From IMG/VR virus record IMGVR_UViG_3300028914_000001, positions 29,489 to 93,488 of that record: a stretch of 64,000 nt of DNA. One strand, 5' to 3'. A program made the translations under genes and the position numbers. Source of the DNA: a virus (lineage: Duplodnaviria; Heunggongvirae; Uroviricota; Caudoviricetes). How positions within the stretch are numbered: position 1 is the first letter of the stretch; each line of letters begins with the position of its first letter. The notes under the pieces were generated by a model that did no database searches, had not been told where the DNA came from, and was given only the letters and a program-made list of their open reading frames with translations. Below are positions 8,552-53,779 of the stretch, in pieces.

Positions 8552-8580
8552 AATATACATAAATAAATCCCCTCTGTCAA
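8552..8580 (-). promoter_or_regulatory. sigma70-type promoter; the -35 forms the loop of the hairpin CCCCTC-TTGACA-GAGGGG
   Basis: TTGACA-N17-TATATT on the minus strand; stem at 8568-8587 followed by a U-rich tract. Confidence 0.6.
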
Positions 8581-8610
8581 GAGGGGGTTGGAAATTTTTT
8601 TGTATCGGGC

Positions 8611-8814
8611 CTATAAGATACCCCGTTTTTCCACCGTTTTGGCATCCAAGGAGAAAGTGGCACCGCAAACGGAGCAACGCTTGATATAGACGAGTTTTCC
8701 TGTTAGAGGGTCCCTTCGTGGTTCCACGTCGCCCGCCAAGTTGGAAATGACGGGCTTGACGGAATCTTCCCCGTTGCACAGGGGGCATCGTGACCAGGTG
8801 TGCGTAAGTGTCAT
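8611..8814 (-). CDS. zinc-ribbon protein (67 aa)
   Basis: CPLC...CSVC pair; GGAGAT RBS. Confidence 0.5.
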   Translation of the reverse strand: MTLTHTWSRCPLCNGEDSVKPVISNLAGDVEPRRDPLTGKLVYIKRCSVCGATFSLDAKTVEKRGIL

Positions 8815-8815
8815 T

Positions 8816-9001
8816 TCATCTCCTGTATCTTTCCTTGTATATCAAATCCAGCAGGGTCCAGAAGGAAGCGGTATTGACGATGACGAAGATGACGAGGCCG
8901 ACTATATGGAGAACGGAGAGTTCTGCCGTATATAGGAGGTAGATTCCTAGTACTACGGCGACCATATTGATGAAGCAGATGTAGTCTTTATTGTGGTTCA
9001 T
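8816..9001 (-). CDS. small membrane protein (61 aa, 2 TM)
   Basis: GGAG RBS; two hydrophobic helices. Confidence 0.5.
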   Translation of the reverse strand: MNHNKDYICFINMVAVVLGIYLLYTAELSVLHIVGLVIFVIVNTASFWTLLDLIYKERYRR

Positions 9002-9016
9002 GCGGCTACTCCGTGG

Positions 9017-9589
9017 TTAGAACGGGTCGTGCATCTTCTTTTCCATAGTCCAGTAGTACTTGTGGATTGCGTTAATGAACATGGTTTCAATCAACGACCA
9101 TATCCTTTCGTTCGTGTCCTTGGAATGTCCGTAGTGTTGGAATCCTTTACGGAGGTTGCCAAGCATTATGTCGGCTGCCTTCTTTCCGTTGATATACGTA
9201 CGAATCACGTAACAGGCATGTACGCATGCCTCCTCGGGATGTGTCATATCGTCGAGCCACCTGGTAATGTGCTTTCGGTCTGTAACTCGGTTGAACCCCA
9301 TGAAGCCAGGGAAGCAGTGCCTGTGGGACTGGTACAGGAAGCGGCATAGGCTGTTGACCAGCTCCACGGGTATCATCTGCCCGTTGGATACATAGGAGAA
9401 CATCTTCTCGGTGAAACGACGTTTTTCCTCATCGTAGCATTTCCTGACCTCACGGTTGTTATTTATCTCGTCTTCGAGCGTTGCTGCTTCGCTCTTATCG
9501 AGGGTATCACGAATCTTAGCCAACTCGGCCTGACATCCGTCGTGGTTCAGTGTTCGGATATACCTTGTTATCTCGGTTACTTTCTGCAT
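9017..9589 (-). CDS. hypothetical protein (190 aa)
   Basis: Track ORF with an ATG start. Confidence 0.55.
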   Translation of the reverse strand: MQKVTEITRYIRTLNHDGCQAELAKIRDTLDKSEAATLEDEINNNREVRKCYDEEKRRFTEKMFSYVSNGQMIPVELVNSLCRFLYQSHRHCFPGFMGFNRVTDRKHITRWLDDMTHPEEACVHACYVIRTYINGKKAADIMLGNLRKGFQHYGHSKDTNERIWSLIETMFINAIHKYYWTMEKKMHDPF

Positions 9590-9609
9590 GATGTTCCAAT
9601 TAGATTTAG

Positions 9610-9798
9610 TTAGGAAATTACTAGATAATACGGGCCGACCCTATTGTGGCATACAACTTTTTGTTCAGAGTCAACATCGAAAATCGGTTCGAAATCTGGG
9701 TATAGCCAACCCTCTTCCCTGACTGGTTTCATACATTCCATGTCGCCGTGTTTCTCGATTTCGGCTTGTATCAGTTCTATCAATTCGGATGCTTTCAT
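9610..9798 (-). CDS. hypothetical protein (62 aa)
   Basis: AGGAGC RBS. Confidence 0.5.
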   Translation of the reverse strand: MKASELIELIQAEIEKHGDMECMKPVREEGWLYPDFEPIFDVDSEQKVVCHNRVGPYYLVIS

Positions 9799-9874
9799 CA
9801 GTTCGCTCCTATGACCTCTTTACCATAATATAGGTAATTAAAGGCGTGTTGTAAAGGGAAGTTGTGTAAAATTT

Positions 9875-10144
9875 CTATTTTTTCTTTTCTGCGTAAATCA
9901 TCATGCCGAAGCCGTCGCTTACTTCGTCGAGGTAGACATCGTCTTTTAGGTACTCGCTGATGCGACCGAAGAACATGAGGTCAGTTGGGGTGTTCTTGCA
10001 CCTGACGTAGCTTGAACATGCCCCTGCGCTTCTCTGCCAGTGGTTGGCGTGGGTGGTCTTCCAAGTTGGAATATCCACCTCGTAGCCGAGTTCTTTCTTG
10101 ATGCGTTCGGCGAGTTTTTCACGGAGGGTCTTGCGTTTAGGCAT
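9875..10144 (-). CDS. hypothetical basic protein (89 aa)
   Basis: AGGAGAACAACC RBS followed by ATG (MPKRK...). Confidence 0.5.
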   Translation of the reverse strand: MPKRKTLREKLAERIKKELGYEVDIPTWKTTHANHWQRSAGACSSYVRCKNTPTDLMFFGRISEYLKDDVYLDEVSDGFGMMIYAEKKK

Positions 10145-10154
10145 GGTTGTTCTC

Positions 10155-10379
10155 CTAGCAATAGTCCAGTGTCCAAATCCAGTCGGCTGTTGCGGATATC
10201 CAATTAGATTCATTTATGTATTCATCCCTCTTGGGGAATTCCTCGTCGATGGCGTACTCGTTGTTGGAAATCATTTCCTCGGCTTCGTCATCGGTGAGGT
10301 AGCCGGGGCCGTCGTCGAGGGGGAGGAGCTGGGAGGTGAGGTTCTCCTTCACCTTTTTCCTGAATGTCGCTTTATCCAT
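10155..10379 (-). CDS. hypothetical acidic protein (74 aa)
   Basis: AAAGGATG RBS. Confidence 0.5.
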   Translation of the reverse strand: MDKATFRKKVKENLTSQLLPLDDGPGYLTDDEAEEMISNNEYAIDEEFPKRDEYINESNWISATADWIWTLDYC

Positions 10380-10389
10380 AGGGCATCCT

Positions 10390-10911: not shown

Positions 10912-10921
10912 TTTGGTTTCC

Positions 10922-11500: not shown

Positions 11501-11517
11501 GGGGGGAAATCCTATTG

Positions 11518-11976: not shown

Positions 11977-11980
11977 GGGA

Positions 11981-12325: not shown

Positions 12326-12350
12326 TGGTTGAATCCTTTCTTGATTGGTT

Positions 12351-12390
12351 ACAAAAAACAATATAGCTAATTAAAGCTATATTGTCAAGG
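12351..12390. repeat. 38-bp duplicated promoter element containing the palindrome ATATAGCTAATTAAAGCTATAT (copy 1)
   Basis: Near-identical to 18431-18470. Confidence 0.8.
12360..12388 (-). promoter_or_regulatory. sigma70-type promoter with a palindromic, operator-like spacer
   Basis: TTGACA-N17-TATATT on the minus strand. Confidence 0.6.
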
Positions 12391-12413
12391 ATTATTTTGA
12401 TTTTTTTGATATT

Positions 12414-13130
12414 TTATGTCTCGAAGAACATGTCGAGGTGTTCCTTGATGTAGTTGAACCGTTGCATCGTGTAGTCCTTTTCAGGGGGTATGCCGAACCT
12501 CTTGAGCATATCGAGATGGTCCTGAATTTCCGCCTTGCTCTCATCGGGCCTGTACAGCATGTTGAAGGCACCGTTGCCATGGTAGAGCATCCAGTTGATG
12601 TTCTCGATTGCCTCGGTATTCTTCCACCTTACGCTGAAGTTGGCACAGTGACCCTGCACGGATGCGACGATGCCTACAAGGTTGCTCGTACTGAACTTGC
12701 AGTAGTAAGGCTTGTCTCCGCTTTCGAAAAGGAATCCGTTTTCGCCCCATCCGTCGTTGAACTGGCCGTCGATTTCGTCTTCCAGCTTGTAGAGGACTTC
12801 CTTGGTCTTCTCGGTGTCGCTGAGGATGCGGGAGTCGATGTAGACACCCATACAGAGGACGATGCCGTGGTCCTTGTCGAAGGATATGAAGTGGCCTCCC
12901 GCCTTGGTTCCTTCGGGGAACTGGTCGTCGCACAGGGGGTATGTCTTGCCCATGAATGAGGACTGGAAGGCTGAGAGCAGGTCTGGGAGCAGCTGCTTCT
13001 TTTCCTGTTCGCTGAGTTCGGTTTCATCGCCGTTCTCGTCGTTCCCGGTGAGTTCGATGCGGTAGAAGAGCTGGATGTTGTTGCTGTAATCGCAGTAGAA
13101 TGGTTTTCCTGTATGTTCGTTCTTAGACAT
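12414..13130 (-). CDS. hypothetical protein, DGWGENGF-motif family (paralog of 5072-5692)
   Basis: Conserved DGWGENGF block; ATG at track residue 22 (MSKNEH...). Confidence 0.6.
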   Translation of the reverse strand: MSKNEHTGKPFYCDYSNNIQLFYRIELTGNDENGDETELSEQEKKQLLPDLLSAFQSSFMGKTYPLCDDQFPEGTKAGGHFISFDKDHGIVLCMGVYIDSRILSDTEKTKEVLYKLEDEIDGQFNDGWGENGFLFESGDKPYYCKFSTSNLVGIVASVQGHCANFSVRWKNTEAIENINWMLYHGNGAFNMLYRPDESKAEIQDHLDMLKRFGIPPEKDYTMQRFNYIKEHLDMFFET

Positions 13131-13686: not shown

Positions 13687-13688
13687 GG

Positions 13689-13894: not shown

Positions 13895-14488
13895 TTAGTC
13901 CTTATAAAGCTGGTACTTCTTGCTGAGCTTATGGCTCTGTTCGTCGGGGAGGGGCTTGAACCAGATTCCGACACGGCAGAACTTCTTGCCCGTTTCCGGG
14001 TCTTCGGAGTCCGGGGTCAATTCGGTGAGGCAGGCATCGTCGATGAAGTCGTAGTCGACGCCCTTAACCAGACCGAGTTCCTTGGCGGTTTCCTCGACCT
14101 TCATTAAGTGGTTGAGGTTCCTGGCTTCACAGATGGTCTTTGTGAAGATGCCCTTGACATAGTCCTCCCAGATATCCTTTGGGATGTTAACCGTAACTGA
14201 AATAGATTTGTCTGGATTCTCCCTAGGATAGGTAAACTCCTTCAGGCCAGCCTTGTGAGCTTCCTCAGCCTTCTCGAAGATTGCGGGATTCCGATACCTT
14301 ATCCAGTAGTCGGGGTCGCTCGGGATTTCCGTAGGCAGGGTCATGAACTCGTTGTCCGTGACGCCAAACAGGAGGGCGAAGTGCTTTATGAGGCTTGTCC
14401 AGTAGCCTTCGGCGCAATGGGCGACCATGGCGGCCAGCTTGCCTGGGGAGAGGTGCAAATCCTTTCTGATGATGAACAGTCTACGCAT
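13895..14488 (-). CDS. PTH2-family peptidyl-tRNA hydrolase-like protein with an internal insertion
   Basis: IRKDLHLSPGKLAAMVAHCA matches the PTH2 pattern RxDLxMxxGKxxAQxxHA; C-terminal ELGL...IDDA...TEL block. Confidence 0.5.
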   Translation of the reverse strand: MRRLFIIRKDLHLSPGKLAAMVAHCAEGYWTSLIKHFALLFGVTDNEFMTLPTEIPSDPDYWIRYRNPAIFEKAEEAHKAGLKEFTYPRENPDKSISVTVNIPKDIWEDYVKGIFTKTICEARNLNHLMKVEETAKELGLVKGVDYDFIDDACLTELTPDSEDPETGKKFCRVGIWFKPLPDEQSHKLSKKYQLYKD

Positions 14489-15580: not shown

Positions 15581-15644
15581 ATTTTATCCTTTTAGTTGGA
15601 GCACAACTTTCAATATAGAAAATTAAATCGGTGTTGTCAAGGGG

Positions 15645-16476: not shown

Positions 16477-16505
16477 AATATAGATAATTAAATATCAACT
16501 GTCAA
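16477..16505 (-). promoter_or_regulatory. sigma70-type promoter
   Basis: TTGACA-N17-TATATT with TTAATTA in the spacer. Confidence 0.6.
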
Positions 16506-18430: not shown

Positions 18431-18470
18431 TACAAAAACAATATAGCTAATTAAAGCTATATTGTCAAGA
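18431..18470. repeat. 38-bp duplicated promoter element with the palindrome ATATAGCTAATTAAAGCTATAT (copy 2)
   Basis: Near-identical to 12351-12390. Confidence 0.8.
18440..18468 (-). promoter_or_regulatory. sigma70-type promoter with a palindromic spacer
   Basis: TTGACA-N17-TATATT. Confidence 0.6.
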
Positions 18471-22305: not shown

Positions 22306-22334
22306 AATGTAGGCAATTAAATCGAAATTGTCAA
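22306..22334 (-). promoter_or_regulatory. sigma70-type promoter
   Basis: TTGACA-N17-TACATT with TTAATTG in the spacer. Confidence 0.5.
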
Positions 22335-23571: not shown

Positions 23572-23600
23572 AATATAACTAATTAAACCCACTCTGTCAA
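23572..23600 (-). promoter_or_regulatory. sigma70-type promoter embedded in a short hairpin
   Basis: TTGACA-N17-TATATT; CCACT/AGTGG stem around the -35. Confidence 0.55.
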
Positions 23601-23641
23601 GTGGTTTTTTTTTATTTTTTATTCGCCTTTCATTCAGGTCC

Positions 23642-26448: not shown

Positions 26449-26476
26449 AATATAGCATATTGCCGTAACTTGTCAA
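26449..26476 (-). promoter_or_regulatory. sigma70-type promoter heading the long minus-strand block
   Basis: TTGACA-N16-TATATT followed by TAATTAAG. Confidence 0.55.
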
Positions 26477-26536: not shown

Positions 26537-26680
26537 ATGGCAGCAAGAATCGTTGATACCGTATGTGCCACGCTCGTAATGCTGGCGGTCGCACTCGTCT
26601 CCCCACTCCTCATCGCAGCATACACGGAAGCAAAGAAGGCGGAACCCTGGCTAGACAAGAATCTTGACACGCAGAAGTAA
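26537..26680 (+). CDS. small membrane protein (47 aa)
   Basis: AGGAAACC RBS; single TM helix. Confidence 0.35.
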   Translation: MAARIVDTVCATLVMLAVALVSPLLIAAYTEAKKAEPWLDKNLDTQK

Positions 26681-26717
26681 ATTGTATATCTTTTACATCA
26701 AGCTAAAAGGAAATAAT

Positions 26718-28254: not shown

Positions 28255-28291
28255 AAATTCTGTTTACATTCATTATTTTTTCGCTCGTGTA

Positions 28292-28320
28292 TTGACACGG
28301 GCGATTTTATTATGTATATT
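28292..28320 (+). promoter_or_regulatory. sigma70-type promoter
   Basis: TTGACA-N17-TATATT followed by TAATTACGTAATTAA. Confidence 0.6.
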
Positions 28321-29106: not shown

Positions 29107-29346
29107 ATGTATAATGAACAATTAGCAAAGATGCTGGCCGAATATCTTAAAAAAGACCTTGTTTCGGTCAGGATTAGCGGAACCAATAAGCATCTGAAAA
29201 TCATCAATGTCGAGGACAGCTGCGATGTGGGGATGCTTGATATCGTGGTAAAACCCTTTACGGATGAAATCAATTATTACTCGGAAACCCATGACTACGC
29301 AAACATAATTGAGAAGTCCGAGAAAGACGAAAACAGGATGGCTTAG
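29107..29346 (+). CDS. hypothetical protein (79 aa)
   Basis: AAAGGAGGAACA RBS. Confidence 0.5.
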   Translation: MYNEQLAKMLAEYLKKDLVSVRISGTNKHLKIINVEDSCDVGMLDIVVKPFTDEINYYSETHDYANIIEKSEKDENRMA

Positions 29347-29361
29347 CCATCCTTTATTTTA
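29335..29361. terminator. bidirectional rho-independent terminator
   Basis: AGGATGGC-TTA-GCCATCCT hairpin followed by TTATTTTAT; both stop codons lie inside the hairpin. Confidence 0.7.
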
Positions 29362-29543
29362 TCCCATCTTTTTGATAGTTCATTAACCTTGTCAGCCATC
29401 TTCTGCTCATAATAGGCGGTAGATGACACACAGGCGTCAGGATACTTGTCCACCAGAGGCTGCAGGTCAGCTTCGTCGTAGACAGGGATAGAATCCTTCG
29501 TTCCGTAACCGTTAGGATATACGATGAATACTGGACTGGACAT
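29343..29543 (-). CDS. hypothetical protein (66 aa)
   Basis: GTAGGAGGAAT RBS followed by ATG inside the track ORF. Confidence 0.45.
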   Translation of the reverse strand: MSSPVFIVYPNGYGTKDSIPVYDEADLQPLVDKYPDACVSSTAYYEQKMADKVNELSKRWDKIKDG

Positions 29544-30480: not shown

Positions 30481-30509
30481 AATATAGAAAATAAAAAGAC
30501 GGTTGTCAA
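30481..30509 (-). promoter_or_regulatory. sigma70-type promoter
   Basis: TTGACA-N17-TATATT. Confidence 0.55.
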
Positions 30510-32484: not shown

Positions 32485-32504
32485 GATTAGATTAGATTAG
32501 ATTA
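32485..32504. repeat. (GATTA)4 microsatellite
   Basis: gattagattagattagatta between the SPFH RBS and the upstream stop. Confidence 0.8.
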
Positions 32505-32751
32505 AACCATCGAAGGCACCTAGCCCCGCATACAAACTGATTATGCGTCTAGCATTGTTGCTTTCGGCACGCTCCAACCGGGCTGCAGCCTCTGGGTAAA
32601 TCAGTTGGTGCTCAACATTTTTCAACCCGAAGATGGCATCCCTTGTGCGGTCAAAGTGTTCCTCGTCAGATGCAAAGAATCGTTTGCACCAGCCGATATG
32701 AATCCATTTGCCACGATATTCGTATTGGAGGTAGGTGTGCTTCATGTACAA
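32497..32751 (-). CDS. hypothetical protein (84 aa)
   Basis: First gene after the promoter at 32753-32781. Confidence 0.5.
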   Translation of the reverse strand: MYMKHTYLQYEYRGKWIHIGWCKRFFASDEEHFDRTRDAIFGLKNVEHQLIYPEAAARLERAESNNARRIISLYAGLGAFDGLI

Positions 32752-32752: not shown

Positions 32753-32781
32753 AATATAGCACATTAAAAGTCGGCTGTCAA
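32753..32781 (-). promoter_or_regulatory. sigma70-type promoter
   Basis: TTGACA-N17-TATATT. Confidence 0.55.
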
Positions 32782-33493: not shown

Positions 33494-34687
33494 TTACTCC
33501 GATGCCTTGAAGTTATATACAGGCTTGATTGTTTCGACAATATCGCAACTGTCCTTGATGTTCTCGATGATTTCCTTTGCTGGCTTGTAAGCCATCGGGG
33601 ATTCATCCAAAGTGGATTTATTTACACATGTACTGTAAATGCCACGCATGGACTTCTGGTACGCTTCGAGCGAGATGCTTTCCTTCGCATGAGAGCGTGA
33701 CATCTTTCTTCCTGCTCCATGCGGTGCAGAGAAGTTCCAATCAGAGTTTCCCTTGCCCGTGCAAATAAGAGCCCCGTCCCTCATGTTCATAGGAATAATC
33801 AGGCGTTCGCCTTCCTGTGCGGATACAGCTCCCTTACGGAGAATCATGTGCTTCATGTCGATGTAATTATGCAAGGTGCAGAACTTGTCCACGACATGCA
33901 GACGGAGCGCCCTGACAATCTCTTCAAGCATCGCTTCACGGTTACGTGTTGCAAAGTCCTGTGCCAACGCCATGTCATGCAGATATCCGTCGAACGACTT
34001 GCCAGTGAGGTAAGACAGTTCCTTCGGGGGAGGGAAATGAGGGATGCTTGCCAACGCTGCGGGAAGCTCGTCTTCACGACCCTCACTCTTATACTTGGCT
34101 ATTATGGCACCACGCTGCTGAGTCAGGTCGTTGCATTCGTCGATTGCAACTCCCTGCCAGTAATCACAGGTTGCCAACCCAAGATGTCGGGAACCTGAGT
34201 GGATTACGATGTACAGGTTACCATGAGAATCCTTGTCGCATTCGCAGAAGTGATTGCCTCCGCCCAAACTTCCAAGCGACAACAACTCGGTATATTCCAT
34301 CTTCCCTTCCTTGTAGACAATCATATCCTCGATAGGAAAGTCCTTTGCCATCGAGTGCTTGCTTTCACGATGGGACTTCCCAGACGGAATCCTTTCACGG
34401 ATAACCTTGTCCAATTTATCAAAATCAACCGAACGGTCTTTCAACTTGGCAACAAGCATACCACACCCAATGTCCACCCCGACGAGATTAGGCACAATCT
34501 TGTCCTTAATCGTCATGGTAGTGCCAACGGTGCAGCCCTTCCCAGCATGCACATCGGGCATGATTCTAACCTGCATGTCCTTAGCCCAGCACTGACACAT
34601 CATGTTCAACAACTGTGTATATGCATCTGGGTCGATATTGTCGCTGAATACCTTGGCGGTATTAAACCTACCCTGTATATCAATCAT
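33494..34687 (-). CDS. rtcB: RtcB-family RNA 3'-phosphate/5'-OH ligase
   Basis: MPDVHAGKGCTVG, GGGNHFCE, HSGSRHLG and SAPHGAGR signature blocks; ATG at track residue 7. Confidence 0.9.
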   Translation of the reverse strand: MIDIQGRFNTAKVFSDNIDPDAYTQLLNMMCQCWAKDMQVRIMPDVHAGKGCTVGTTMTIKDKIVPNLVGVDIGCGMLVAKLKDRSVDFDKLDKVIRERIPSGKSHRESKHSMAKDFPIEDMIVYKEGKMEYTELLSLGSLGGGNHFCECDKDSHGNLYIVIHSGSRHLGLATCDYWQGVAIDECNDLTQQRGAIIAKYKSEGREDELPAALASIPHFPPPKELSYLTGKSFDGYLHDMALAQDFATRNREAMLEEIVRALRLHVVDKFCTLHNYIDMKHMILRKGAVSAQEGERLIIPMNMRDGALICTGKGNSDWNFSAPHGAGRKMSRSHAKESISLEAYQKSMRGIYSTCVNKSTLDESPMAYKPAKEIIENIKDSCDIVETIKPVYNFKASE

Positions 34688-34694
34688 AATAAAC

Positions 34695-35051
34695 CTATCT
34701 ACCAATCAATTCTTTTTTATAACCATAGGCAATATCAAATGCCTTACCCATCTCAATCGCCGCTCGGATAGCCTTCTTGATGTCATTATCCTTCACAACG
34801 CAGTCGTACAGATTTCCGAACGCAACTGGACTCGAATACTCCCGGTCACGAGTACGTATTTCACTCCACATGAGTGTATTGCCGTCATTAGTATCCTTGT
34901 CCTTGTAGAAAGACATGTTCAAAACGGTGTTATTGAACGTGATATTCAACATGCTACCGTCAGCAACTACTCCACAGTCAGGCAGATAGTGCATAGCGAA
35001 ATCAAGGTCATCCTTCTTGATTCGCAAATATTGAAGATTCCGTCGTGCCAT
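34695..35051 (-). CDS. hypothetical protein (118 aa) immediately upstream of rtcB
   Basis: GAAAAGGAATACT RBS; the track ORF N-terminus runs over the tRNA-like sequence. Confidence 0.5.
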   Translation of the reverse strand: MARRNLQYLRIKKDDLDFAMHYLPDCGVVADGSMLNITFNNTVLNMSFYKDKDTNDGNTLMWSEIRTRDREYSSPVAFGNLYDCVVKDNDIKKAIRAAIEMGKAFDIAYGYKKELIGR

Positions 35052-35071
35052 AGTATTCCTTTTCAAAAAGT

Positions 35072-35145
35072 TAATCGGGCAGGTGGGATTCGAACCCACA
35101 CTGAAGGGGGTTTAAACCCCATTCCTCTACCAGTTGGGTTACTAC
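35072..35145 (-). tRNA. tRNA-like gene (74 nt, anticodon UAA, Leu-type reading) with a weak D-arm
   Basis: 7-bp acceptor stem with one G-U; canonical GTGGG-TTCGAAT-CCCAC T-arm; anticodon loop TTTAAAC; D-stem pairs poorly. Confidence 0.45.
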
Positions 35146-35160
35146 CCGAACCAATTCAAT

Positions 35161-36309
35161 TTAGTCAGAAAGCAGACGCTTGATTCTGTCACGAGCCCGC
35201 ATGAAGTTTTCATGGTAGGTTCCGTTCAGATAAACAACATCTTCTGTGCAGTAGTGCTTACCGAGAATGCTCATCAAGACCTGATACTGCTTCTTCCTAT
35301 CTTCGAAGCTGTTCGTGAGGCAATCCCTGCTTCCGTCCTGCACCCAGCTATCTTTTTTCGGAGGCATAACGAAGATGAGGTCGTATTTCAGGAACTTCGC
35401 ATTGGCTTCGATAAGCTTATAGTCGTCTTCGGTGATGGCATACCTGTCATCCATCGAGTAATACTTAGCGTACATGAGCGTTGTCATTGCGTCACTGTCA
35501 CAGATGTTGACCTTATGCCAACTTGCCGAGTTGACTCTGTACTGCTCGTTAAGAAAACGAAGGTAGTCATTAAAGGTCAGCTTGGTATCATCAGGCTGCG
35601 GTTCCTTTCCGTTTTGAGCGGCGATGTAAGTGTGACCGTATTCCTCGGTGTACCCAACATCGAAGTATCTGGCAAGGTCTTTCGTGAGCGTGGACTTGCC
35701 TTCCGATGCCGTACCGATAATCAGGACACGCTTGGCGAACTGAGCCTTGAACTCATGCCCAATGATTTCGTCCCAATACTTCATCGGTTCCTTGCGTATC
35801 TTTGTTGCAGAAATCTGATTGAGCTCTCTCGGCAACAGATACACATTGGGGCCTTTACTGACCAACGACATGATTGCCTGTCTGTACGACGGTTCGCCAG
35901 TAAAGACAGTCGTTTTCTGAAGCAATTTCGTACACTTTCGCTTGCTGACATCAGCATTGCCGTACACGATTTCAGCGAGCTTATCGCTGAGAGCTTCCAA
36001 CCATTCAGACCATTTGTCCATGTAACCTGCAATGCCGATATCGTTATCCTTCATCATGACGACGTGAACAAGCGGGTCGCCTTCAAACATCTTCTTGATG
36101 ATTTCATAGCGACGTTCAATCGGAAGACCGATTCTCGTACCACGGTCGCCATCAAGCCCGCAAACGGCAATGATTGCACCCTTAGAGCAGAGCTTCTTCG
36201 CTGCCATTACGAGGTCAAGATGACCTGTATGCATCGGGCTGAAAGACCCGAGGACAACCCCGTATTCACGAGGGCCACCGCTGATTTGGTTAATCACGTC
36301 GTCAAGCAT
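35161..36309 (-). CDS. nadR: NadR-like bifunctional NMN adenylyltransferase/ribosylnicotinamide kinase (no HTH)
   Basis: N-terminal GSFSPMHTGHLDLV (HxGH nucleotidyltransferase motif); C-terminal Walker A GTASEGKST; GGAGG RBS. Confidence 0.75.
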   Translation of the reverse strand: MLDDVINQISGGPREYGVVLGSFSPMHTGHLDLVMAAKKLCSKGAIIAVCGLDGDRGTRIGLPIERRYEIIKKMFEGDPLVHVVMMKDNDIGIAGYMDKWSEWLEALSDKLAEIVYGNADVSKRKCTKLLQKTTVFTGEPSYRQAIMSLVSKGPNVYLLPRELNQISATKIRKEPMKYWDEIIGHEFKAQFAKRVLIIGTASEGKSTLTKDLARYFDVGYTEEYGHTYIAAQNGKEPQPDDTKLTFNDYLRFLNEQYRVNSASWHKVNICDSDAMTTLMYAKYYSMDDRYAITEDDYKLIEANAKFLKYDLIFVMPPKKDSWVQDGSRDCLTNSFEDRKKQYQVLMSILGKHYCTEDVVYLNGTYHENFMRARDRIKRLLSD

Positions 36310-36990
36310 TTAAGCCTCCACAGTGTCTGTTTCAAGCTTCTTCTCGGTATGAGACCATTCGACCCAACCGTAGATGGTGTTGATAAACCAGCAAACATAC
36401 ATCGCCACCATTGCCCATTCGCCAATGAGTGCGAAAGTCACGATGGAAATGCCATCAAGCACAAACCAGAAGAACCACTGTTCACGGTAGCAAGTGATAA
36501 TGAGAATCTGAGCAATGACCGTGAAGCTTATGCTCAACGCATCCATGTACGGAACTGCACCGTCAAGAACAAACTTGTCGAACGTACCGAAGCCAACGGT
36601 AAGAACGATTGTCGCAATAATCGAAATAACCCATGCCTTAGGAGAGAGTCGCTTCGGAATAACGTGCGTTCTGTCCTTTTCGAGCTGCTTGTACCATGCG
36701 TACAAACCATACACCATCGTCACGTTGTAGAAGATATATTCGCCAAATTCAAGCCACAGGCGGCTTTCCCAACAGATGTACATATACATGAAGTTGAAAA
36801 CGAAACTCGGTGCGTAAGCCCAGATGTTCTTCTGTGCAAACATCACGGTTGAAATCGTTCCCAGGAGTGCCGTCAGCATGGCAAACCACATTGCGGTATG
36901 GCCATCAGGCATCATGATGGTGAAGATGATGGTGAAGATGATGAACGCTGTCATGTACAGCGCACGGAATTTATTTTTGATAAAAGACAT
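36310..36990 (-). CDS. pnuC: PnuC nicotinamide riboside transporter
   Basis: Seven predicted TM helices, aromatic-rich, PnuC-like size; abuts nadR; AAAGAAGGCAAT RBS. Confidence 0.7.
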   Translation of the reverse strand: MSFIKNKFRALYMTAFIIFTIIFTIMMPDGHTAMWFAMLTALLGTISTVMFAQKNIWAYAPSFVFNFMYMYICWESRLWLEFGEYIFYNVTMVYGLYAWYKQLEKDRTHVIPKRLSPKAWVISIIATIVLTVGFGTFDKFVLDGAVPYMDALSISFTVIAQILIITCYREQWFFWFVLDGISIVTFALIGEWAMVAMYVCWFINTIYGWVEWSHTEKKLETDTVEA

Positions 36991-37028: not shown

Positions 37029-37057
37029 AATATACTAACTTCATTCCCCTCTGTCAA
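37029..37057 (-). promoter_or_regulatory. sigma70-type promoter with the -35 in a CCCC/GGGG hairpin
   Basis: TTGACA-N17-TATATT. Confidence 0.55.
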
Positions 37058-37073
37058 GGGGGTTGCTCGATTT

Positions 37074-39270: not shown

Positions 39271-39299
39271 AATATACATACTTCTTTTGAGATTGTCAA
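39271..39299 (-). promoter_or_regulatory. sigma70-type promoter (divergent from the clpX promoter)
   Basis: TTGACA-N17-TATATT. Confidence 0.55.
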
Positions 39300-39332: not shown

Positions 39333-39361
39333 TTGCCACCCTATAAAAAATATACTATATT
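39333..39361 (+). promoter_or_regulatory. sigma70-type promoter for clpX
   Basis: TTGCCA-N17-TATATT, then TAATTCAAAGC and an AAAGGAA RBS. Confidence 0.55.
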
Positions 39362-40668: not shown

Positions 40669-40700
40669 AGCCAGCGAGAACATCGCTGGCTTTCTTGTTA
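40669..40700. terminator. bidirectional rho-independent terminator
   Basis: AGCCAGCGA-gaaca-TCGCTGGCT hairpin followed by TTCTTGTTATTTCTT. Confidence 0.7.
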
Positions 40701-41728: not shown

Positions 41729-42139
41729 TTAATCCAAGTTAATTAAGTTAATGCAATCCACGATGAACTGACCGAAGTCGTCCTGAATCGCAGCAGCAAT
41801 GTTAGAGTCTAACCTTTTGGTTCCTGTGAGATATCCCCATCCACGCACGTCGAGGTCAATCTCGTCGCCGTCAGCCTTGAACCTAACCACGGCGGCACTC
41901 TGGGAGCCCAAGTACTCGGGATGCCCGAAAGACTTCTTCATAGGGGGTTCCTTACCCTCTAGGACTGCATTCATGGCATCTACAATAGCCTTGAAATGCT
42001 CATCGGCAGTACCCGTGAAGGCAGCGTCAGACATTGAACTGGTTGTACGGTTTCCGGCAGAATCCCAGATAGTATCTAGGCAAATCTGGTCGTTTTTAAA
42101 CGGGGATATAAAGTATTTTTTCCATTTGTATTCGTTCAT
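41729..42139 (-). CDS. hypothetical protein (136 aa), possibly translated from a leaderless mRNA
   Basis: The ATG lies about 7 nt after the -10 of promoter 42146-42174, with no SD. Confidence 0.5.
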   Translation of the reverse strand: MNEYKWKKYFISPFKNDQICLDTIWDSAGNRTTSSMSDAAFTGTADEHFKAIVDAMNAVLEGKEPPMKKSFGHPEYLGSQSAAVVRFKADGDEIDLDVRGWGYLTGTKRLDSNIAAAIQDDFGQFIVDCINLINLD

Positions 42140-42145: not shown

Positions 42146-42174
42146 AATATAGTTAAATTGTCCTGATTTGTCAA
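42146..42174 (-). promoter_or_regulatory. sigma70-type promoter
   Basis: TTGACA-N17-TATATT. Confidence 0.55.
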
Positions 42175-42175: not shown

Positions 42176-42209
42176 TAAATAAAAGAATCGGGACTAAAAT
42201 GTCCCGATT
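42176..42209 (-). terminator. rho-independent terminator
   Basis: AATCGGGAC-taaaat-GTCCCGATT hairpin followed by TTTTATTTAA on the minus strand. Confidence 0.55.
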
Positions 42210-42908: not shown

Positions 42909-43388
42909 TTAACCATCGAACCACACAGCGTTTGCCTTCACATATATCTGACCATTCTCTTCAACCTCAGTAATGCCCGATTTATCGTAATCATAATCAC
43001 CTTCAGAGGTGAAATTGTCGGAAAGCTCCTTCATTTTAAGGTAACTGCAAGCAACATGTGATGTATTCAGATGATACATAAGAGATTCGAGCGGACCGTA
43101 ACCCTCTCCATACTTCACAGAAAGCTTGATAAATTCCACGACAAAGTCCTTAGGCAACTTGCCAATGCTTTCCGGCTCGTTCTTCATGAGGTAATCAGCA
43201 TAGTCATGTACGTCGACTATGTCATCCCTCTTATCCCACGGTCCGCTGCCACCCATCGGGTTACACAGAAGCCAAACCAAGTTCGGGTCACCTGCGACAA
43301 ACCTGTCCCATTTTTCCTTCGGCGTATACGTCAAGGCGTGTGCCGAAGACGAATTAGTTTCAAATACTGAATATCGTACTGTTTTCAT
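42909..43388 (-). CDS. FETNSSS-motif family protein B (159 aa)
   Basis: MKTVRYSVFETNSSSAHAL; TAGAGGAACTT RBS. Confidence 0.6.
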   Translation of the reverse strand: MKTVRYSVFETNSSSAHALTYTPKEKWDRFVAGDPNLVWLLCNPMGGSGPWDKRDDIVDVHDYADYLMKNEPESIGKLPKDFVVEFIKLSVKYGEGYGPLESLMYHLNTSHVACSYLKMKELSDNFTSEGDYDYDKSGITEVEENGQIYVKANAVWFDG

Positions 43389-43407: not shown

Positions 43408-43445
43408 CAATATAACAAAAAAGCGGATGGCTGTCAACCATCCGC
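43408..43445 (-). terminator. terminator hairpin GCGGATGG-TTGACAG-CCATCCGC plus U-tract, with the -35 of the next promoter in its loop
   Basis: 8-bp stem followed by TTTTTTGTTATATT on the minus strand. Confidence 0.55.
43409..43437 (-). promoter_or_regulatory. sigma70-type promoter overlapping the terminator hairpin
   Basis: TTGACA-N17-TATATT. Confidence 0.5.
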
Positions 43446-43466: not shown

Positions 43467-44063
43467 TTAGAACTTTACCGTCGGGGCCACATCAGCGCCA
43501 GTAACAGCGGAGAACGGCACCTTCGGGGTCACTCCGGCGAATCCCGCCACGAAGACACCGGGGAATGTTCTGACCTTGTTGTTAAGGTTGTTGACTGCCA
43601 CATTGAACTGGCGTCTGGACTCGGCGATACGGTTTTCGCATCCTTCAAGCTGAACACGCAGGTCACGGAAAGCGGCGTTAGCCTTCAAGTTCGGATAGTT
43701 TTCTGTAACCATCATGAGACGCTGCAATGCTCCACCGAGGCTGTTCTGTGCTTCCTGGAACTTCTTCATTGCACGTTCGTCACTGAGCATGCTTTCATCC
43801 ATCTTAATCACGCCACCCATACGGCTACGAGCCTCGATGACTTCGGTGAGCGTACTCTTCTCGAAGTTGGCTTCGCCCTTCACCGTTTCGACGATGTTCG
43901 GAATAAGGTCGTAACGACGCTGGTACTGGTTTTCGACGTTAGCCCAGCTCATCTGCACACCGTTTTCAAGAGTGCGAAGGGAGTTGAACTGGCCGATGAA
44001 AGCGCATCCGCTGATAAAGGCGAGCACGACAATGACGATAAGTACGAGTTTACCCGTAGACAT
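43467..44063 (-). CDS. lemA: LemA-family membrane protein
   Basis: N-terminal TM, then NSLRTLENGVQMSWANVENQYQRRYDLIPN, YPNLKAN and LEGCENRIAESRR blocks typical of LemA. Confidence 0.8.
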   Translation of the reverse strand: MSTGKLVLIVIVVLAFISGCAFIGQFNSLRTLENGVQMSWANVENQYQRRYDLIPNIVETVKGEANFEKSTLTEVIEARSRMGGVIKMDESMLSDERAMKKFQEAQNSLGGALQRLMMVTENYPNLKANAAFRDLRVQLEGCENRIAESRRQFNVAVNNLNNKVRTFPGVFVAGFAGVTPKVPFSAVTGADVAPTVKF

Positions 44064-44101
44064 TTTATACCTCTTTGGTTTAGATTGTTGGTTTTGTTGA
44101 A

Positions 44102-44130
44102 AATATAGCATTTAACTTGGTGCTTGTCAA
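44102..44130 (-). promoter_or_regulatory. sigma70-type promoter
   Basis: TTGACA-N17-TATATT. Confidence 0.55.
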
Positions 44131-48005: not shown

Positions 48006-48034
48006 AATATAGTCTTTTAAATCCTTTTTGTCAA
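48006..48034 (-). promoter_or_regulatory. sigma70-type promoter of the QueC/radical-SAM/FETNSSS operon
   Basis: TTGACA-N17-TATATT. Confidence 0.55.
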
Positions 48035-48053: not shown

Positions 48054-48082
48054 TTGACAATTTACAAAATAATAACTATTTT
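48054..48082 (+). promoter_or_regulatory. sigma70-type promoter (divergent)
   Basis: TTGACA-N17-TATTTT. Confidence 0.5.
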
Positions 48083-48586: not shown

Positions 48587-48620
48587 TAAAAAAGACCGCC
48601 AATTAAGGCGGCCTTTTTAA
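48587..48620. terminator. bidirectional rho-independent terminator
   Basis: AAAAAGACCGCC-aattaa-GGCGGCCTTTTT. Confidence 0.7.
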
Positions 48621-51421: not shown

Positions 51422-51705
51422 GTTCGAATTTCCTGTACCTTCGGTTCACGGGGAGCTGGCACCACCGTACCATCCTTCTCGACCCTGTCGCCCTGTCCAT
51501 ACAGGATGTGGTTGACAAAATCATACCGCACATGGCTGATAGCATGGCGAGGGAAACGGATGGTCAACGTAGTGTCGTTGAACTGGTATGTACCAATGTA
51601 TCCTTCGTCCGTCTTTACACTGGATGTGCGAACACCGTACTGGATATTCGGCTCACCAGCAAAGGCAAGAGCCACTCCCAAAAGGAGTGCTGCAATCGTT
51701 TTCAT
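51409..51705 (-). CDS. secreted or lipoprotein-like small protein (98 aa)
   Basis: Signal peptide MKTIAALLLGVALAFA. Confidence 0.5.
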   Translation of the reverse strand: MKTIAALLLGVALAFAGEPNIQYGVRTSSVKTDEGYIGTYQFNDTTLTIRFPRHAISHVRYDFVNHILYGQGDRVEKDGTVVPAPREPKVQEIRTWGN

Positions 51706-51884
51706 TACGCCCCCTTCTTCTTTGAACGGGATTCCGCCCTTTCCTTGGCCATCTTGGCTAGGCCCTTGTTCAATGCCTTCATGGAACGGTCGATACGACC
51801 AACGCTTGCGGCAGACTTCTTTTCACGGAATGTCTGGGTGGGTGCGAACTTTCCTGCTGTCTTTATATCATAGATGCTTTTCAT
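51705..51884 (-). CDS. small basic protein (about 59 aa), not in the ORF track
   Basis: AAGAGGAAAAT RBS; TAATG overlap with the next gene; follows the promoter at 51911-51939. Confidence 0.4.
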   Translation of the reverse strand: MKSIYDIKTAGKFAPTQTFREKKSAASVGRIDRSMKALNKGLAKMAKERAESRSKKKGA

Positions 51885-51910
51885 ATTTTCCTCTTATTTT
51901 ATCGCCCCAA

Positions 51911-51939
51911 AATATAGTACATTATTAACTACTTGGCAA
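51911..51939 (-). promoter_or_regulatory. sigma70-type promoter
   Basis: TTGCCA-N17-TATATT. Confidence 0.5.
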
Positions 51940-52396
51940 GAGGGGCGTCCATAAAATATAATTTTGTGCGGTCTTCTTTCATTTCATCGAACTGGGTAAA
52001 CAGGATTCGTTTAACCTCGTCTGGAGAGACTTTCCTAATACCTGGCCCGCTCACTTTCTCCATTTCCCCAGGATGACGGTTGCTTCTCCGATAAGTCTGC
52101 ATCGTCCACGGATTGTTTCCATCATGATTGGCGTCCTCGGCAATCTTCATGTACAGTTCCCATCGCAACGGATATGACGTACGGTAGAGCACACGGCCAT
52201 CCACGACCAGCGTGTAGTGGACATTCACCATGTCGTTCATGGGCTCTATACGGACATCCATCACCCGGATAACATGGTCAATCATGCTTGACGCACCTTC
52301 CTTATGCTCAATGTACTCGGCGACCGCATCGACGCCTTGATACTGATTGAAGAGTTCGTTACTCATCTTTCTTATAAATGCTTCATCCATACGCAT
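51929..52396 (-). CDS. hypothetical protein (155 aa)
   Basis: ATG (MRMDEAF...) 3 nt after the upstream stop. Confidence 0.5.
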   Translation of the reverse strand: MRMDEAFIRKMSNELFNQYQGVDAVAEYIEHKEGASSMIDHVIRVMDVRIEPMNDMVNVHYTLVVDGRVLYRTSYPLRWELYMKIAEDANHDGNNPWTMQTYRRSNRHPGEMEKVSGPGIRKVSPDEVKRILFTQFDEMKEDRTKLYFMDAPLAK

Positions 52397-52398
52397 CC

Positions 52399-52860
52399 CT
52401 AATGAATAAAATCGCAACTGTCAACAACGGCTTCCATAATCTTGGCCTTTTCTTCGTCGCTCAGCTTGGGCAAGTCATGATACGCATTGTCGATTTTCCA
52501 TTTGGCCTTCAACATCCAGTAGAAATCCCTCATGCGGTAGTCCATGTCTTCGAGGAGTTCTTTATCCTTTCCATCTTCGAAGAAAGCCAGCATTTCGGAA
52601 TTCAGGCTACCCTTTGAGGCAGTGTATCCTTCCTTCAACTGATTGCACTTCTGGGCGTGAACATACGCATCCTCTCGGTTGAGAAACACGATTTTACCAT
52701 CGACATTTGCGGCAAATCCATCCGTACCCAGATTATACACCCCATACACCTGCAGCAGGTGCTTGAAAGCCTCGCCATGGTCGTGACCATGTCCGAACGG
52801 GCACATTATCGGCTTTCCCGATTGAGTGAACTTGGATAGAGAAACGGCAGCGATAATCAT
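52399..52860 (-). CDS. hypothetical protein with a CxxxHGH motif (weak QueD/PTPS-like hint)
   Basis: CPFGHGHDHGE; TGGAGGAAATA RBS before the ATG at 52860. Confidence 0.45.
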   Translation of the reverse strand: MIIAAVSLSKFTQSGKPIMCPFGHGHDHGEAFKHLLQVYGVYNLGTDGFAANVDGKIVFLNREDAYVHAQKCNQLKEGYTASKGSLNSEMLAFFEDGKDKELLEDMDYRMRDFYWMLKAKWKIDNAYHDLPKLSDEEKAKIMEAVVDSCDFIH

Positions 52861-52872
52861 TATTTCCTCCAA

Positions 52873-53712
52873 TTAAATCGGCTTAGAACCGCACGCTCTG
52901 TATTGTTCGCTTCTGCACTTGTCGAAACAATTACCATTCATCATGAGTTCATCCCAAAGCTTAGTGAAGAATCCAGTTTCCTCTTCACAGGTCATCGCAC
53001 ACAGGCCGACACTATGTTTGGAAGCACACTTATGCCATACCGCAAGCTTCGGGGCGATTTCTTTCATGTGCCTTTTACGCTCCTCTTCCCGTTGCAGTTC
53101 AGCTGCGAGGAGGTCGTTACGGCCACTCATCCAACAGGTCACATTACCTTCCTCGTCGAAACATTTGGTCACGTCATCGACTTTCCAACGCTGCACCTCA
53201 CCCGTCGGATAGTACCATGTTTCTCGCCAAGTCTTCTCGTAAGGTTCCTTGACATAGACGGTCTTACCTTCAAGGTTATACACGAACTCCACATTGTCCT
53301 TGAACTCGTGTACCTTGGTTCCGTTAATGTACTCGCTATGGTCGTTATAGTTTCGCCAGTACACGATACCTTTACGGCGTTCGGCAATGATACGGCGACC
53401 AAGGTCGATAAGGGTAGTATCCTTCTTTTCGATGACTCGGTAGATATCGTTCCCGATATACTTTCCGCCTTTCATCTGCATGGTTTGAAGAACTGCAACC
53501 CATTCGGTCATCTTGTAGATTTCAAGATGCTGAGCTTCCAGGTCGTCAATACGGGAGTTCAACTCGTTGTTCATCTGAATGATGGTCGCTCTCGTCTGTT
53601 CTATCTTGTAATAGTTATCCAGAGCCTGACCCTTGAGGGCCGACACATCACCACGAATACCCGTTGTTGCGACATAGGCGCCAAAGGCACCAAGGAAAAG
53701 TTCAAAAAGCAT
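52873..53712 (-). CDS. membrane-anchored coiled-coil protein (279 aa)
   Basis: N-terminal TM; GGAGGCAGATAAAT RBS. Confidence 0.55.
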   Translation of the reverse strand: MLFELFLGAFGAYVATTGIRGDVSALKGQALDNYYKIEQTRATIIQMNNELNSRIDDLEAQHLEIYKMTEWVAVLQTMQMKGGKYIGNDIYRVIEKKDTTLIDLGRRIIAERRKGIVYWRNYNDHSEYINGTKVHEFKDNVEFVYNLEGKTVYVKEPYEKTWRETWYYPTGEVQRWKVDDVTKCFDEEGNVTCWMSGRNDLLAAELQREEERKRHMKEIAPKLAVWHKCASKHSVGLCAMTCEEETGFFTKLWDELMMNGNCFDKCRSEQYRACGSKPI

Positions 53713-53750
53713 ATTTATCTGCCTCCATGCAGTTGATTGTTACATGGATA

Positions 53751-53779
53751 AATATACATAATTAAATAACGCCTGTCAA
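53751..53779 (-). promoter_or_regulatory. sigma70-type promoter
   Basis: TTGACA-N17-TATATT with TTTAATTA in the spacer. Confidence 0.55.

Follow-up and report, generated by a model that had tools for sequence, protein, structure and literature searches.

In a 64-kb window of an uncultured virus assigned to the Caudoviricetes (positions 29,489 to 93,488 of IMG/VR record IMGVR_UViG_3300028914_000001), we found a stereotyped set of putative promoters, and at some of them a terminator-like hairpin encloses the -35 hexamer. We consider it likely that these are early promoters for a housekeeping sigma factor, into a subset of which an intrinsic terminator for the upstream transcription unit has been fused. 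The hairpins that enclose the -35 are not due to chance. When 173 unique sites with a 17-nt spacer (N17) were pooled from the window and related phage contigs, 17 had an enclosing hairpin with a folding energy of -10 kcal/mol or lower. In 60 flank-swap controls, which are chimeras with the 3' flank taken from another site so that column composition is kept, the count was 2.1 ± 1.4 (maximum 5), an approximately 8-fold difference. At -12 kcal/mol or lower, the counts were 13 and 0.85, respectively. Here ‘window’ refers to the whole stretch of 64,000 nt that was analysed, and coordinates are counted from its first base.

A stereotyped set of predicted promoters

The window was searched with the regular expression TTG[AC]CA-N16/17-TATATT, and exactly 24 matches were obtained, 7 on the plus strand and 17 on the minus strand, in agreement with the initial annotation, which had claimed at least 24. 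By chance, 0.04 would be expected from second-order Markov simulations and 0.05-0.11 from an independence estimate based on hexamer counts. The strict form TTGACA-N17-TATATT occurs 19 times, compared with 0.00 in 100 dinucleotide-preserving shuffles. When up to two mismatches were allowed, five more convincing intergenic sites appeared (9827, 22306, 26664, 48054 and 57280). The likely promoters of the window number about 28 and span 1963 to 61214, with a median spacing of 2.2 kb and a range of 48 nt to 4.4 kb. The set had been placed at 8552-53779, where it is real, but further sites lie outside at 1963, 4175, 57599, 59476 and 61186.

Predicted promoters of the window
1963..1991, plus strand: TTGCCA-N17-TATATT, TTAATTA in the spacer
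4175..4203, plus strand: TTGACA-N17-TATATT
8552..8580, minus strand: TTGACA-N17-TATATT; gene 7931-8521 begins 30 nt downstream
9827..9855, minus strand: variant TTTACA-N17-TATATT, TTTAATTA in the spacer
12360..12388, minus strand: TTGACA-N17-TATATT, within a 36-nt exact duplicate of the 18440 site
15612..15640, minus strand: predicted promoter
16477..16505, minus strand: predicted promoter
18440..18468, minus strand: predicted promoter, duplicate of the 12360 cassette
22306..22334, minus strand: variant TTGACA-N17-TACATT
23572..23600, minus strand: predicted promoter
26449..26476, minus strand: predicted promoter with N16 spacer, TTAATTA overlapping the 3' end of the -10
26664..26692, plus strand: variant TTGACA-N17-TATCTT
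28292..28320, plus strand: predicted promoter
30481..30509, minus strand: predicted promoter
32753..32781, minus strand: predicted promoter; ATG 8 nt past the -10, candidate leaderless 82-aa open reading frame (ORF) 32497-32745
37029..37057, minus strand: predicted promoter
39271..39299, minus strand: predicted promoter, back-to-back with 39333 (plus strand)
39333..39361, plus strand: TTGCCA-N17-TATATT, upstream of a ClpX-like gene
42146..42174, minus strand: predicted promoter; ATG 7 nt past the -10, candidate leaderless ORF 41729-42139 (136 aa)
43409..43437, minus strand: predicted promoter
44102..44130, minus strand: predicted promoter
48006..48034, minus strand: predicted promoter, divergent pair with 48054 (plus strand)
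48054..48082, plus strand: variant TTGACA-N17-TATTTT
51911..51939, minus strand: TTGCCA-N17-TATATT
53751..53779, minus strand: predicted promoter; enclosing hairpin weak and bulged, -8.3 kcal/mol
57280..57308, minus strand: variant TTGACA-N17-TATTTT
57599..57627, plus strand: predicted promoter
59476..59503, minus strand: TTGCCA-N16-TATATT, intragenic, doubtful
61186..61214, plus strand: predicted promoter; in relatives, 0.5-1.5 kb insertions of promoter and ORF about 40 nt upstream

A simple codon-usage gene call makes about 90% of the window coding, yet 23 of the 24 exact sites are fully intergenic, with a same-strand start codon 6-68 nt downstream. Twenty-one sites end 19-38 nt 5' of a same-strand start codon that has an AAAGGAG-like Shine-Dalgarno sequence. 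There are 40 intergenic gaps of at least 40 nt, 24 of which hold a promoter site, and the remainder are mostly convergent junctions with bidirectional terminators. The intragenic match at 59476-59503 lies in a DUF4422 gene and faces convergent plus-strand genes; it is doubtful, being either a chance match (about 0.05 expected) or an antisense or internal promoter. Two candidate leaderless mRNAs begin at 42139 and 32745 on the minus strand, where the ATG lies 7 and 8 nt past the -10, respectively, at the expected transcription start, and no Shine-Dalgarno sequence precedes it.

The two hexamers with their 17-nt spacing match the housekeeping consensus at 11 of 12 positions in 19 sites, and nine or ten additional sites have one further mismatch. 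In the aligned sites, the region from -30 to -12 relative to the -35 is A/T-rich, CCyC lies directly 5' of the -35, and the spacer consists of seven unconstrained bases, TTTAATTw, one free base and C/G before TATATT. TTAATTA had been described as the usual companion of these promoters, which is overstated; TTAATT is in 13 of the 24 sites, but the exact 7-mer in just 10. Flanking sequence beyond the motif is common to one pair of sites only, the 36-nt exact duplicate 12354-12389 and 18434-18469. Recent duplication was therefore rejected as the source of the stereotypy, which is instead kept by selection. The spacer and -10 of this duplicate form a near-perfect palindrome, ACAATATAGCT-TTAATT-AGCTATATTGT.

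A perfect -35, a 17-nt spacer, a -10 with five of six matches, A/T-rich upstream sequence, intergenic position, and a following Shine-Dalgarno sequence with start codon support the assignment, made from the outset, of these sites as housekeeping-sigma (sigma70/sigmaA) type promoters ahead of genes. Recognition by the host RNA polymerase would be expected by analogy. Early or middle timing is likewise suggested by analogy with T4, T5 and the regions that bear promoter-early stem-loops (PeSLs, described below). Upstream of gene 2510-3385, an element at 2472-2489 on the plus strand (TATTTAATTATGTATATT) has the spacer motif and the -10, with CTCCGC in place of the -35, and is preceded by a T-rich tract of about 60 nt. 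This element may be a -35-independent promoter variant.

Instead of the host holoenzyme, a phage-encoded sigma factor, RNA polymerase or accessory factor could read the promoters, for which TATATT, CCyC and TTTAATTw would be recognition or operator elements. Of the 29 hits to TTGMCA-N16-18-TAnnnT, 24 have TATATT as the -10 and none has TATAAT. Among 29 sites (24 exact and 5 one-mismatch), 11 have TTAATT in a fixed register, 9 nt ahead of the -10, and in 4 more it runs into the 3' end of the -10 in an operator-like manner. CCyC is conserved as well, and the sites contain far more information than sigma70 sites typically do. On the other hand, hexamers and spacing agree with the universal housekeeping consensus at 11 of 12 positions, and no sigma or polymerase gene was found among the about 50 window proteins scanned. 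The AT-rich spacer has a precedent, as AT-rich spacers stimulate sigma70 via R451 (PMC3130263). Moreover, one homologous chromosomal promoter, TTGACA-N7-TTTAATTA-NN-TATATT, is present in Fibrobacter metagenome-assembled genomes (MAGs; L069 3814-3842, L092 and L096), where it has a covarying palindrome across the -10 and appears, from reading translations, to head an AbiEi/AbiEii-like gene pair. We thus regard a phage-encoded reader as quite unlikely. At hairpin-less sites, TTTAATTw and CCyC possibly serve spacer sensing by sigma (PMC3130263) or form an operator for a phage regulator.

Terminator-like hairpins around the -35 hexamer

A stem-loop is found within or beside 8 of the about 28 window promoters. 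Hairpins that enclose the -35 occur at 5 of the 22 window N17 sites and at about 10% of the sites across the clade (17/173).

Hairpins at window promoters
43423..43445, minus strand: 10-bp hairpin GCGGAUGGUU/AGCCAUCCGC around the -35, then U6; -16.4 kcal/mol, z -4.0; best composite
8568..8587, minus strand: 7-bp hairpin CCCCTCT/AGAGGGG around the -35, tail AUUUAUUUAU; -12.5 kcal/mol, z -2.2; moderate terminator candidate
23591..23606, minus strand: 6-bp hairpin CCACUU/GAGUGG with G-U pairs around the -35; -7.9 kcal/mol, z -1.9; weak
37046..37061, minus strand: 6-bp hairpin CCCCUU/GAGGGG around the -35, then AAUGAAG (no U-tract); -10.2 kcal/mol, z -1.7
28281..28304, plus strand: 10-bp hairpin around the -35, tail UUUUAUUAU; -15.9 kcal/mol, z -5.0; strong terminator candidate
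12357..12386, minus strand: 12-bp hairpin GACAAUAUAGCU/AGCUAUAUUGUU, -10 in the 3' arm, then U6; -14.4 kcal/mol, z -5.9
18437..18466, minus strand: 12-bp hairpin, -10 in the 3' arm, then U5; -14.4 kcal/mol, z -5.6
42186..42209, minus strand: stand-alone intrinsic-terminator-like hairpin that ends 10 nt 5' of the -35; -14.2 kcal/mol, z -3.9

Judged by stem and loop, the hairpins at 43423-43445, 28281-28304, 12357-12386, 18437-18466 and 42186-42209 are strong, that at 8568-8587 is moderate, and those at 23591-23606 and 37046-37061 are weak. A U-tract follows the stem at 43423, 28281, 12357, 18437 and 42186, is partial at 8568 and 23591, and is missing at 37046. The 23591-23606 hairpin is flanked by A9 upstream and GUUUAAUUA downstream. 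An independent terminator scan of the 28-48 kb region placed 28281-28304 second and 43423-43445 third among terminator-like sites, in the company of the bidirectional terminators of convergent junctions. The hairpins at 12357-12386 and 18437-18466 have a second geometry, in which the end of the -35 and the early spacer pair with the -10.

Four hairpins had been cited by the initial annotation. All are present at their coordinates, that at 43423-43445 being excellent and that at 8568-8587 moderate, but that at 23591-23606 is weak and that at 37046 lacks a U-tract. Two of the four are individually no better than shuffled sequence. The excellent hairpin at 28281-28304, the second geometry at 12357-12386/18437-18466 and the hairpin at 42186-42209 had been overlooked. 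The -35 hexamer, said to lie in the loop, is indeed enclosed by the hairpin, but the loop of the minimum-energy folds is 3-4 nt (TGAC, GACA or GAC) and part of the hexamer falls within the stem. We found no support for the suggestion that hairpin formation occludes the -35; RNA polymerase reads the -35 as duplex DNA and the RNA hairpin is confined to upstream read-through transcripts.

When the neighbourhoods of 169 sites were examined, terminator-like stems had their 3' ends most often between +10 and +19, counted from the start of the -35 (15 of 33), with a minor cluster at -25 to -21. Distal spacers are T-richer at hairpin sites, with 5.7 versus 4.0 T per 9 nt (p = 0.002). Since the relatives had been found with a seed that includes TTTAATTA, spacer statistics are biased while the flank-swap test is not, and only non-seed sites were used for this T-tract comparison. 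The gap between stop codon and promoter is 23-41 nt at hairpin-bearing sites, compared with a median of 127 nt at hairpin-less sites, and in relatives the longer gap of hairpin-less sites holds a separate CCCC...GGGG-T-tract terminator. From these gap lengths and separate terminators, the embedded hairpin appears where a stand-alone terminator is missing. In the window, each of the 8 promoters with a hairpin lies downstream of a co-directional gene, and the 8 divergent promoters are all hairpin-less (p = 0.04).

The recurrent form of the hairpin is A-rich (aaCCCC-TTGACA-a-GGGG-TTTAATTA-nn-TATATT), and other stems are unrelated in sequence yet pair (GCGGATGG, CGCTCGTGT, CCCGC, ATCCC and AGTCC). 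Homologous cassettes were compared in relatives. In the L057 orthologue of the 28292 cassette, the stem is kept through a G-C to A-U double change; L053 is not collinear with the window there. The hairpin of the 8552 cassette is kept in its homologues from L139, L133, L132, L140 and L057, with folding energies of -10 to -17.5 kcal/mol. Where the window's 8552 stem has a C.A mismatch at its base, L133 has U-A and L132 has C-G, and the pairing register in L057 is shifted by one base. On the other hand, L077, the positional orthologue with the same downstream gene, keeps CCCCCC-TTGACA and the promoter but has GGTTCC as the 3' arm and forms no hairpin (-1.5 kcal/mol). Comparison of L077 with the hairpin-keeping homologues suggests that the terminator half is gained or lost via changes in the sole free part of the spacer. 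A search for relatives of gene 42909-43388 found none, so the 43423 hairpin has no orthologue for comparison.

Such inverted repeats could act as DNA, either as palindromic operators for a dimeric regulator or as cruciforms that hide the -35. Their centring on the -35 and the CCCC...GGGG half-site pattern common to many of them would suit an operator. However, stems that are diverse in sequence keep their pairing, and orthologues differ by compensatory changes and register shifts, which argues for selection on structure rather than on a protein-recognized sequence. T-rich tails and a location just after stop codons are, in addition, the signature of terminators, and stems of 6-10 bp with loops of 3-4 nt are poor at cruciform extrusion. 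We therefore consider a role at the DNA level highly unlikely. RNase III processing sites were also considered and rejected, as the stems are too short.

The design with the -35 in the loop is recurrent, as judged from viral sequences, including in the group where PeSLs were defined. When the IMG/VR database was scanned for CCCC-TTGACA-N1-3-GGGG-TTT with no -10 specified, the pattern was found in 16 independent viral sequence families. TAnnnT follows at exactly 17 nt in 12 of the 16 families, compared with 15% of the other TTGACA occurrences in the same loci. One of the families consists of T4-like cyanomyoviruses, in which the composite lies upstream of a helicase gene (L144, L131, L103-L125). 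In Synechococcus phage Syn19 (GU071106.1, about 44050-44110; L144), it reads GCACCC-TTGACA-GGGTGC-TTTTTT. The composite of T4-like cyanophages combines a terminator hairpin with a TTGACA or TACACA loop, a T-tract and a -10-like hexamer, and in metaG-MbCM1 the start of the coding sequence annotated as ‘UvsW’ overlaps it.

It might be argued that the hairpins have no function and form by chance where a C-rich element 5' of the -35 is combined with a purine-rich early spacer. Most sites carry CCyC, with or without a hairpin, and three of the five -35-enclosing window hairpins fold just 1.7-2.2 standard deviations better than shuffled sequence. Base composition, however, is kept in the flank-swap controls, which the observed count exceeds severalfold, and the hairpins are associated with T-tracts and short stop-to-promoter gaps and keep their pairing among homologues. 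Unrelated phages, moreover, repeat the design with a -10 at exactly 17 nt. By-products are thus scarcely probable.

A putative fusion of terminator and promoter

In the reading that we prefer, a terminator fused into housekeeping-sigma promoters, the region would be organized as short transcription units, each headed by a near-consensus promoter. The promoter would comprise an A/T-rich UP-like region, CCyC, TTGACA, 7 free bases, TTTAATTw, two bases and TATATT, and transcription would start about 7 nt past the -10, giving a leader of 20-35 nt with a strong Shine-Dalgarno sequence. Among units preceded by a co-directional gene, about one in four would have a terminator embedded in its promoter. 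There, most often, the bases just 5' of the -35 would pair with the first 6-10 spacer bases, the -35 would form the loop and the top of the stem, and the T-rich distal spacer would act as the U-tract. Read-through transcripts would end in the spacer, upstream of the -10 and about 15-20 nt short of the next start site, while transcripts initiated at the promoter would lack the hairpin. Neighbouring units of a long co-directional array would be insulated in this way, and upstream mRNAs would presumably gain a protective 3' hairpin. Because the 3' arm lies in the sole unconstrained part of the spacer, a few substitutions could toggle the terminator without harm to the promoter. We infer that termination does take place at the cassettes. 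The original proposal that one unit of about 40 bp ends the upstream transcript and starts the next would apply to a subset, which is terminator-like by enrichment, T-rich tails and compensating changes, but most promoters have no hairpin.

Several points weigh against this reading. The promoter and terminator rules of the host were assumed. The strict TATATT, CCyC and TTTAATTw exceed the known needs of a housekeeping sigma, making a phage factor possible. Three of the five enclosing window hairpins are little better than shuffled sequence, as mentioned above, the 37046 hairpin has no U-tract, and the usual tail UUUAAUUA is an interrupted U-tract. As about 20 of the 28 promoters are without a hairpin, extensive read-through is expected regardless. 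The association with co-directional genes is marginal, with p rising to 0.10 for the six strong hairpins, and a pooled context test in relatives, made with crude ORF calls, was non-significant (0/14 versus 8/82, p = 0.6).

The cassettes could chiefly serve as recombination substrates that shuffle gene modules, as proposed for PeSLs, with termination secondary. Relatives have insertions of 0.36-1.5 kb just upstream of the 57599 and 61186 promoters, beside cassettes at 57560/57574 and 61146/61151, and with each insertion come ORFs and a further TTGACA-N17-TATATT promoter. Cassettes that match the 8552 cassette at 83-94% identity have unrelated genes on either side, and one cassette that is 83% identical to 8529-8598 sits between genes without a window homologue. 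Among twelve metagenomic orthologues of gene 7931-8521, the upstream neighbour is one of three different genes, and the cassette lies directly upstream in none of them. More than 150 copies of an intergenic cassette of about 240 nt were counted in relatives. Within the window, however, identity beyond 30 nt is limited to a single cassette pair, leaving little substrate for homologous exchange, and breakpoints at gene boundaries are expected anyway. A chief role in recombination, which is compatible with the fusion of terminator and promoter, is conceivable but improbable. The term ‘reusable building block’, used in the initial annotation, is apt in that the cassette recurs beside unrelated genes in related genomes and in unrelated phages.

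We also conceived that the fused element could be a stop-and-restart module, in which the polymerase is terminated inside the promoter, released or retained there, and recycled into a hairpin-free transcript. One-dimensional diffusion after termination and subsequent reinitiation have been seen in vitro (PMC6978380). We hold such recycling to be unlikely. If it did occur, the identity and stoichiometry of transcripts would be reset gene by gene, the 6-7 free spacer nucleotides would be an evolvable on/off switch, and the module would have arisen convergently in a clade of giant rumen phages, in T4-like cyanophages and in others.

The closest known systems are the PeSLs of the T4-type phages RB49/phi1, T4/PST and KVP40/nt-1 (Arbiol et al. 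2010, PMC2839356; Comeau et al. 2014, PMC4122927). In reporter assays, PeSL stem-loops equal rrnB T1 in termination, and PeSL promoters are active (PMC2839356). PeSLs have been implicated in the modular shuffling of the plastic regions of T4-type phages (PMC2839356, PMC4122927). The present cassettes resemble them in having a repeated intergenic near-perfect sigma70-type promoter with AT-rich upstream sequence, a stable GC stem-loop as terminator or attenuator, and a Shine-Dalgarno sequence with start codon. PeSLs are concentrated in ORFan-rich plastic regions and associated with gene insertions and deletions between related genomes, which may hold for the present cassettes too. They differ in that the -35 lies in the loop and the spacer serves as U-tract here, only 12357 and 18437 resembling the RB49 type. 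Furthermore, the present -10 is TATATT, CCyC and TTTAATTw are extra, and a stem-loop is present at about a quarter of the promoters. The lineage here is novel and exceeds 400 kb, and no T4 core gene was seen in the window. The cassettes may thus be viewed as a PeSL variant, in which the fusion of promoter and terminator is known and the -35-in-loop geometry appears new. No description of a -35 in a terminator loop was found in the literature, which does not prove its absence.

The strong early promoters of the lytic phages T4 and T5 (in T5, for example, PN25), which host sigma70 reads, are similar in their many near-consensus copies, UP-like A/T-rich upstream region and AT-rich distal spacer, and in heading short early units of small genes. 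The T4 and T5 promoters use TATAAT, and we know of no fused terminator described for them. Canonical intrinsic terminators share a GC-rich stem of 7-12 bp, a loop of 3-6 nt, a T-rich tail and a position 20-40 nt after the stop codon. Those at the convergent junctions of the window have similar folding energies (-12 to -20 kcal/mol). In contrast, the embedded ones also encode the -35 and spacer, so their loop is fixed and their U-tract often interrupted, and several are weaker than stand-alone terminators. Promoters for the virion RNA polymerase of coliphage N4 also have a short hairpin within a phage early promoter. The N4 hairpin, however, is the recognition element at every early promoter and its polymerase is phage-encoded, whereas here 75-90% of promoters are without a hairpin and the conserved elements are the duplex -35 and -10 hexamers.

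Bidirectional intrinsic-terminator-like hairpins at convergent junctions
4828-4856
29335-29353
40669-40691
48591-48616
61912-61934
63423-63452

Such a strong hairpin, set between an A-tract and a T-tract, is present at every convergent gene junction of the window.

Genomic setting and significance

In relatives, dense arrays of an intergenic unit of about 240 nt were found. The unit comprises, in order, a stop codon, a terminator, the 20-nt motif TTCAACTTGGGTTATCACCC, about 50 variable GC-rich bases, TTTACACAAAAA and CCTA-TTGACA-N17-TATATT. The TTCAACTTGGGTTATCACCC motif has 153 copies, and in 116 of them a promoter lies 70-136 nt downstream. In its longer form, (G/T)TTCAACTTGGGTTATCACCC(C/A)TG.CCT, this second repeat is always promoter-oriented (in L034, L037, L094, L049, L089, L021, L007 and others), lies about 20 nt after the stand-alone terminator in relatives and contains the mini-hairpin GGGT-TATC-ACCC. 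In many copies, the 5' part of the repeat is complementary to GTTGRAA directly 5' of the promoter, as in TCTTCAAC with GTTGAAGA. RNAalifold gave no consensus structure for 50 copies taken from the repeat to the promoter, although individual folds suggest a closing stem. Rfam has no match for the repeat and matched nothing in the related locus L034. The second repeat is a candidate factor-binding site, second promoter class, structured element or recombination site.

Copies of the second repeat in the window
1881-1908, plus strand
3456-3483, plus strand

The latter copy is at the start of an 850-nt region, 3386-4235, that has no ORF of at least 80 aa and lies between a terminator at 3412-3434 and the promoter at 4175. 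A conserved block, tTGTAwa..AAA..TTTACACAAAAA, is located about 10-20 nt 5' of CCTA-TTGACA in relatives (alignment A1 columns ~103-128, e.g. L050:508-615) and is weakly visible at window promoters. The block could be an UP-element-like region or a half-palindromic site.

Few genes of the window are recognizable. Megablast of 20 kb against 50,697 phage records gave no match, and protein searches gave only distant matches below 60% identity. Most window proteins have no Pfam or PHROG match, and the Pfam matches are to accessory functions only: RtcB, NadR-like, PnuC-like, ClpX, UDP-galactopyranose mutase, glycosyltransferases, M29 peptidase and PTH2, and further LemA, TPM, radical SAM, QueC-like and SPFH proteins. 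No structural or replication gene was recognized among the about 50 window proteins scanned, nor one for a sigma factor or polymerase, and the large ORFs of relatives, scanned with PHROG and Pfam, likewise yielded no structural, sigma factor or polymerase gene. In Rfam, only a tRNA was matched in the window. The region 33494-36990 holds an RtcB ligase, tRNA-Leu(UAA) at 35074-35149, a NadR-like protein and a PnuC-like transporter, a cluster for RNA repair and NAD salvage; the PTH2 peptidyl-tRNA hydrolase at 13895-14488 lies apart from it. A 43-nt repeat with 91% identity is present in two different genes (12731-12773 and 5320-5362).

A scan of IMG/VR for the extended promoter motif gave numerous matches in a small number of very large rumen viral contigs (419, 279, 277, 178 and 175 kb), which have patches 67-94% identical to the window. 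A sheep-reticulum MAG, ‘Bacteroidaceae bacterium RGIG6563’, has 30 seed matches in a 101-kb contig and 4 in a 317-kb contig (JAFXNA010000009.1 and JAFXNA010000004.1, GTDB-listed under RGIG6563). Both belong to this clade, with up to 94% identity to the window; the loci linked to RGIG6563 are L057-L059, L073, L075, L077, L079, L086 and L094. These contigs look like phage DNA binned with a bacterium, and the uneven distribution of seed matches is consistent with promoters of this class being restricted to part of the genome. A 10-kb contig of ‘Alistipes sp. HGM05544’ (L083, L089) has the same promoters and the second repeat. The window would be an accessory, ORFan-rich region of an uncultured giant rumen phage, its phage nature resting on the IMG/VR classification of the relatives.

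Hints at the host diverge. Related contigs are binned with Bacteroidaceae and Alistipes MAGs, to which the strong Shine-Dalgarno use and TTGACA-type promoters seen here are presumably a poor fit, as Bacteroidota. The Fibrobacter promoter described above is a weak hint that Fibrobacter-type hosts, whose GC content of about 45-48% is similar to that of the phage, use such promoters.

These findings would provide a transcription map for a giant uncultured phage with almost no recognizable genes, comprising about 28 units with predicted starts, and ends at several junctions. An element of about 45 bp could provide both a strong promoter and a terminator, and a few free-spacer bases appear to toggle the terminator with the promoter left untouched. 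Beyond T4-like coliphages and vibriophages, the PeSL concept would come to include a new lineage and geometry. The recurrence of the design in unrelated phages, including cultured cyanophages, suggests that such elements may be a general means of insulating tightly packed phage genes and a compact part for synthetic biology.

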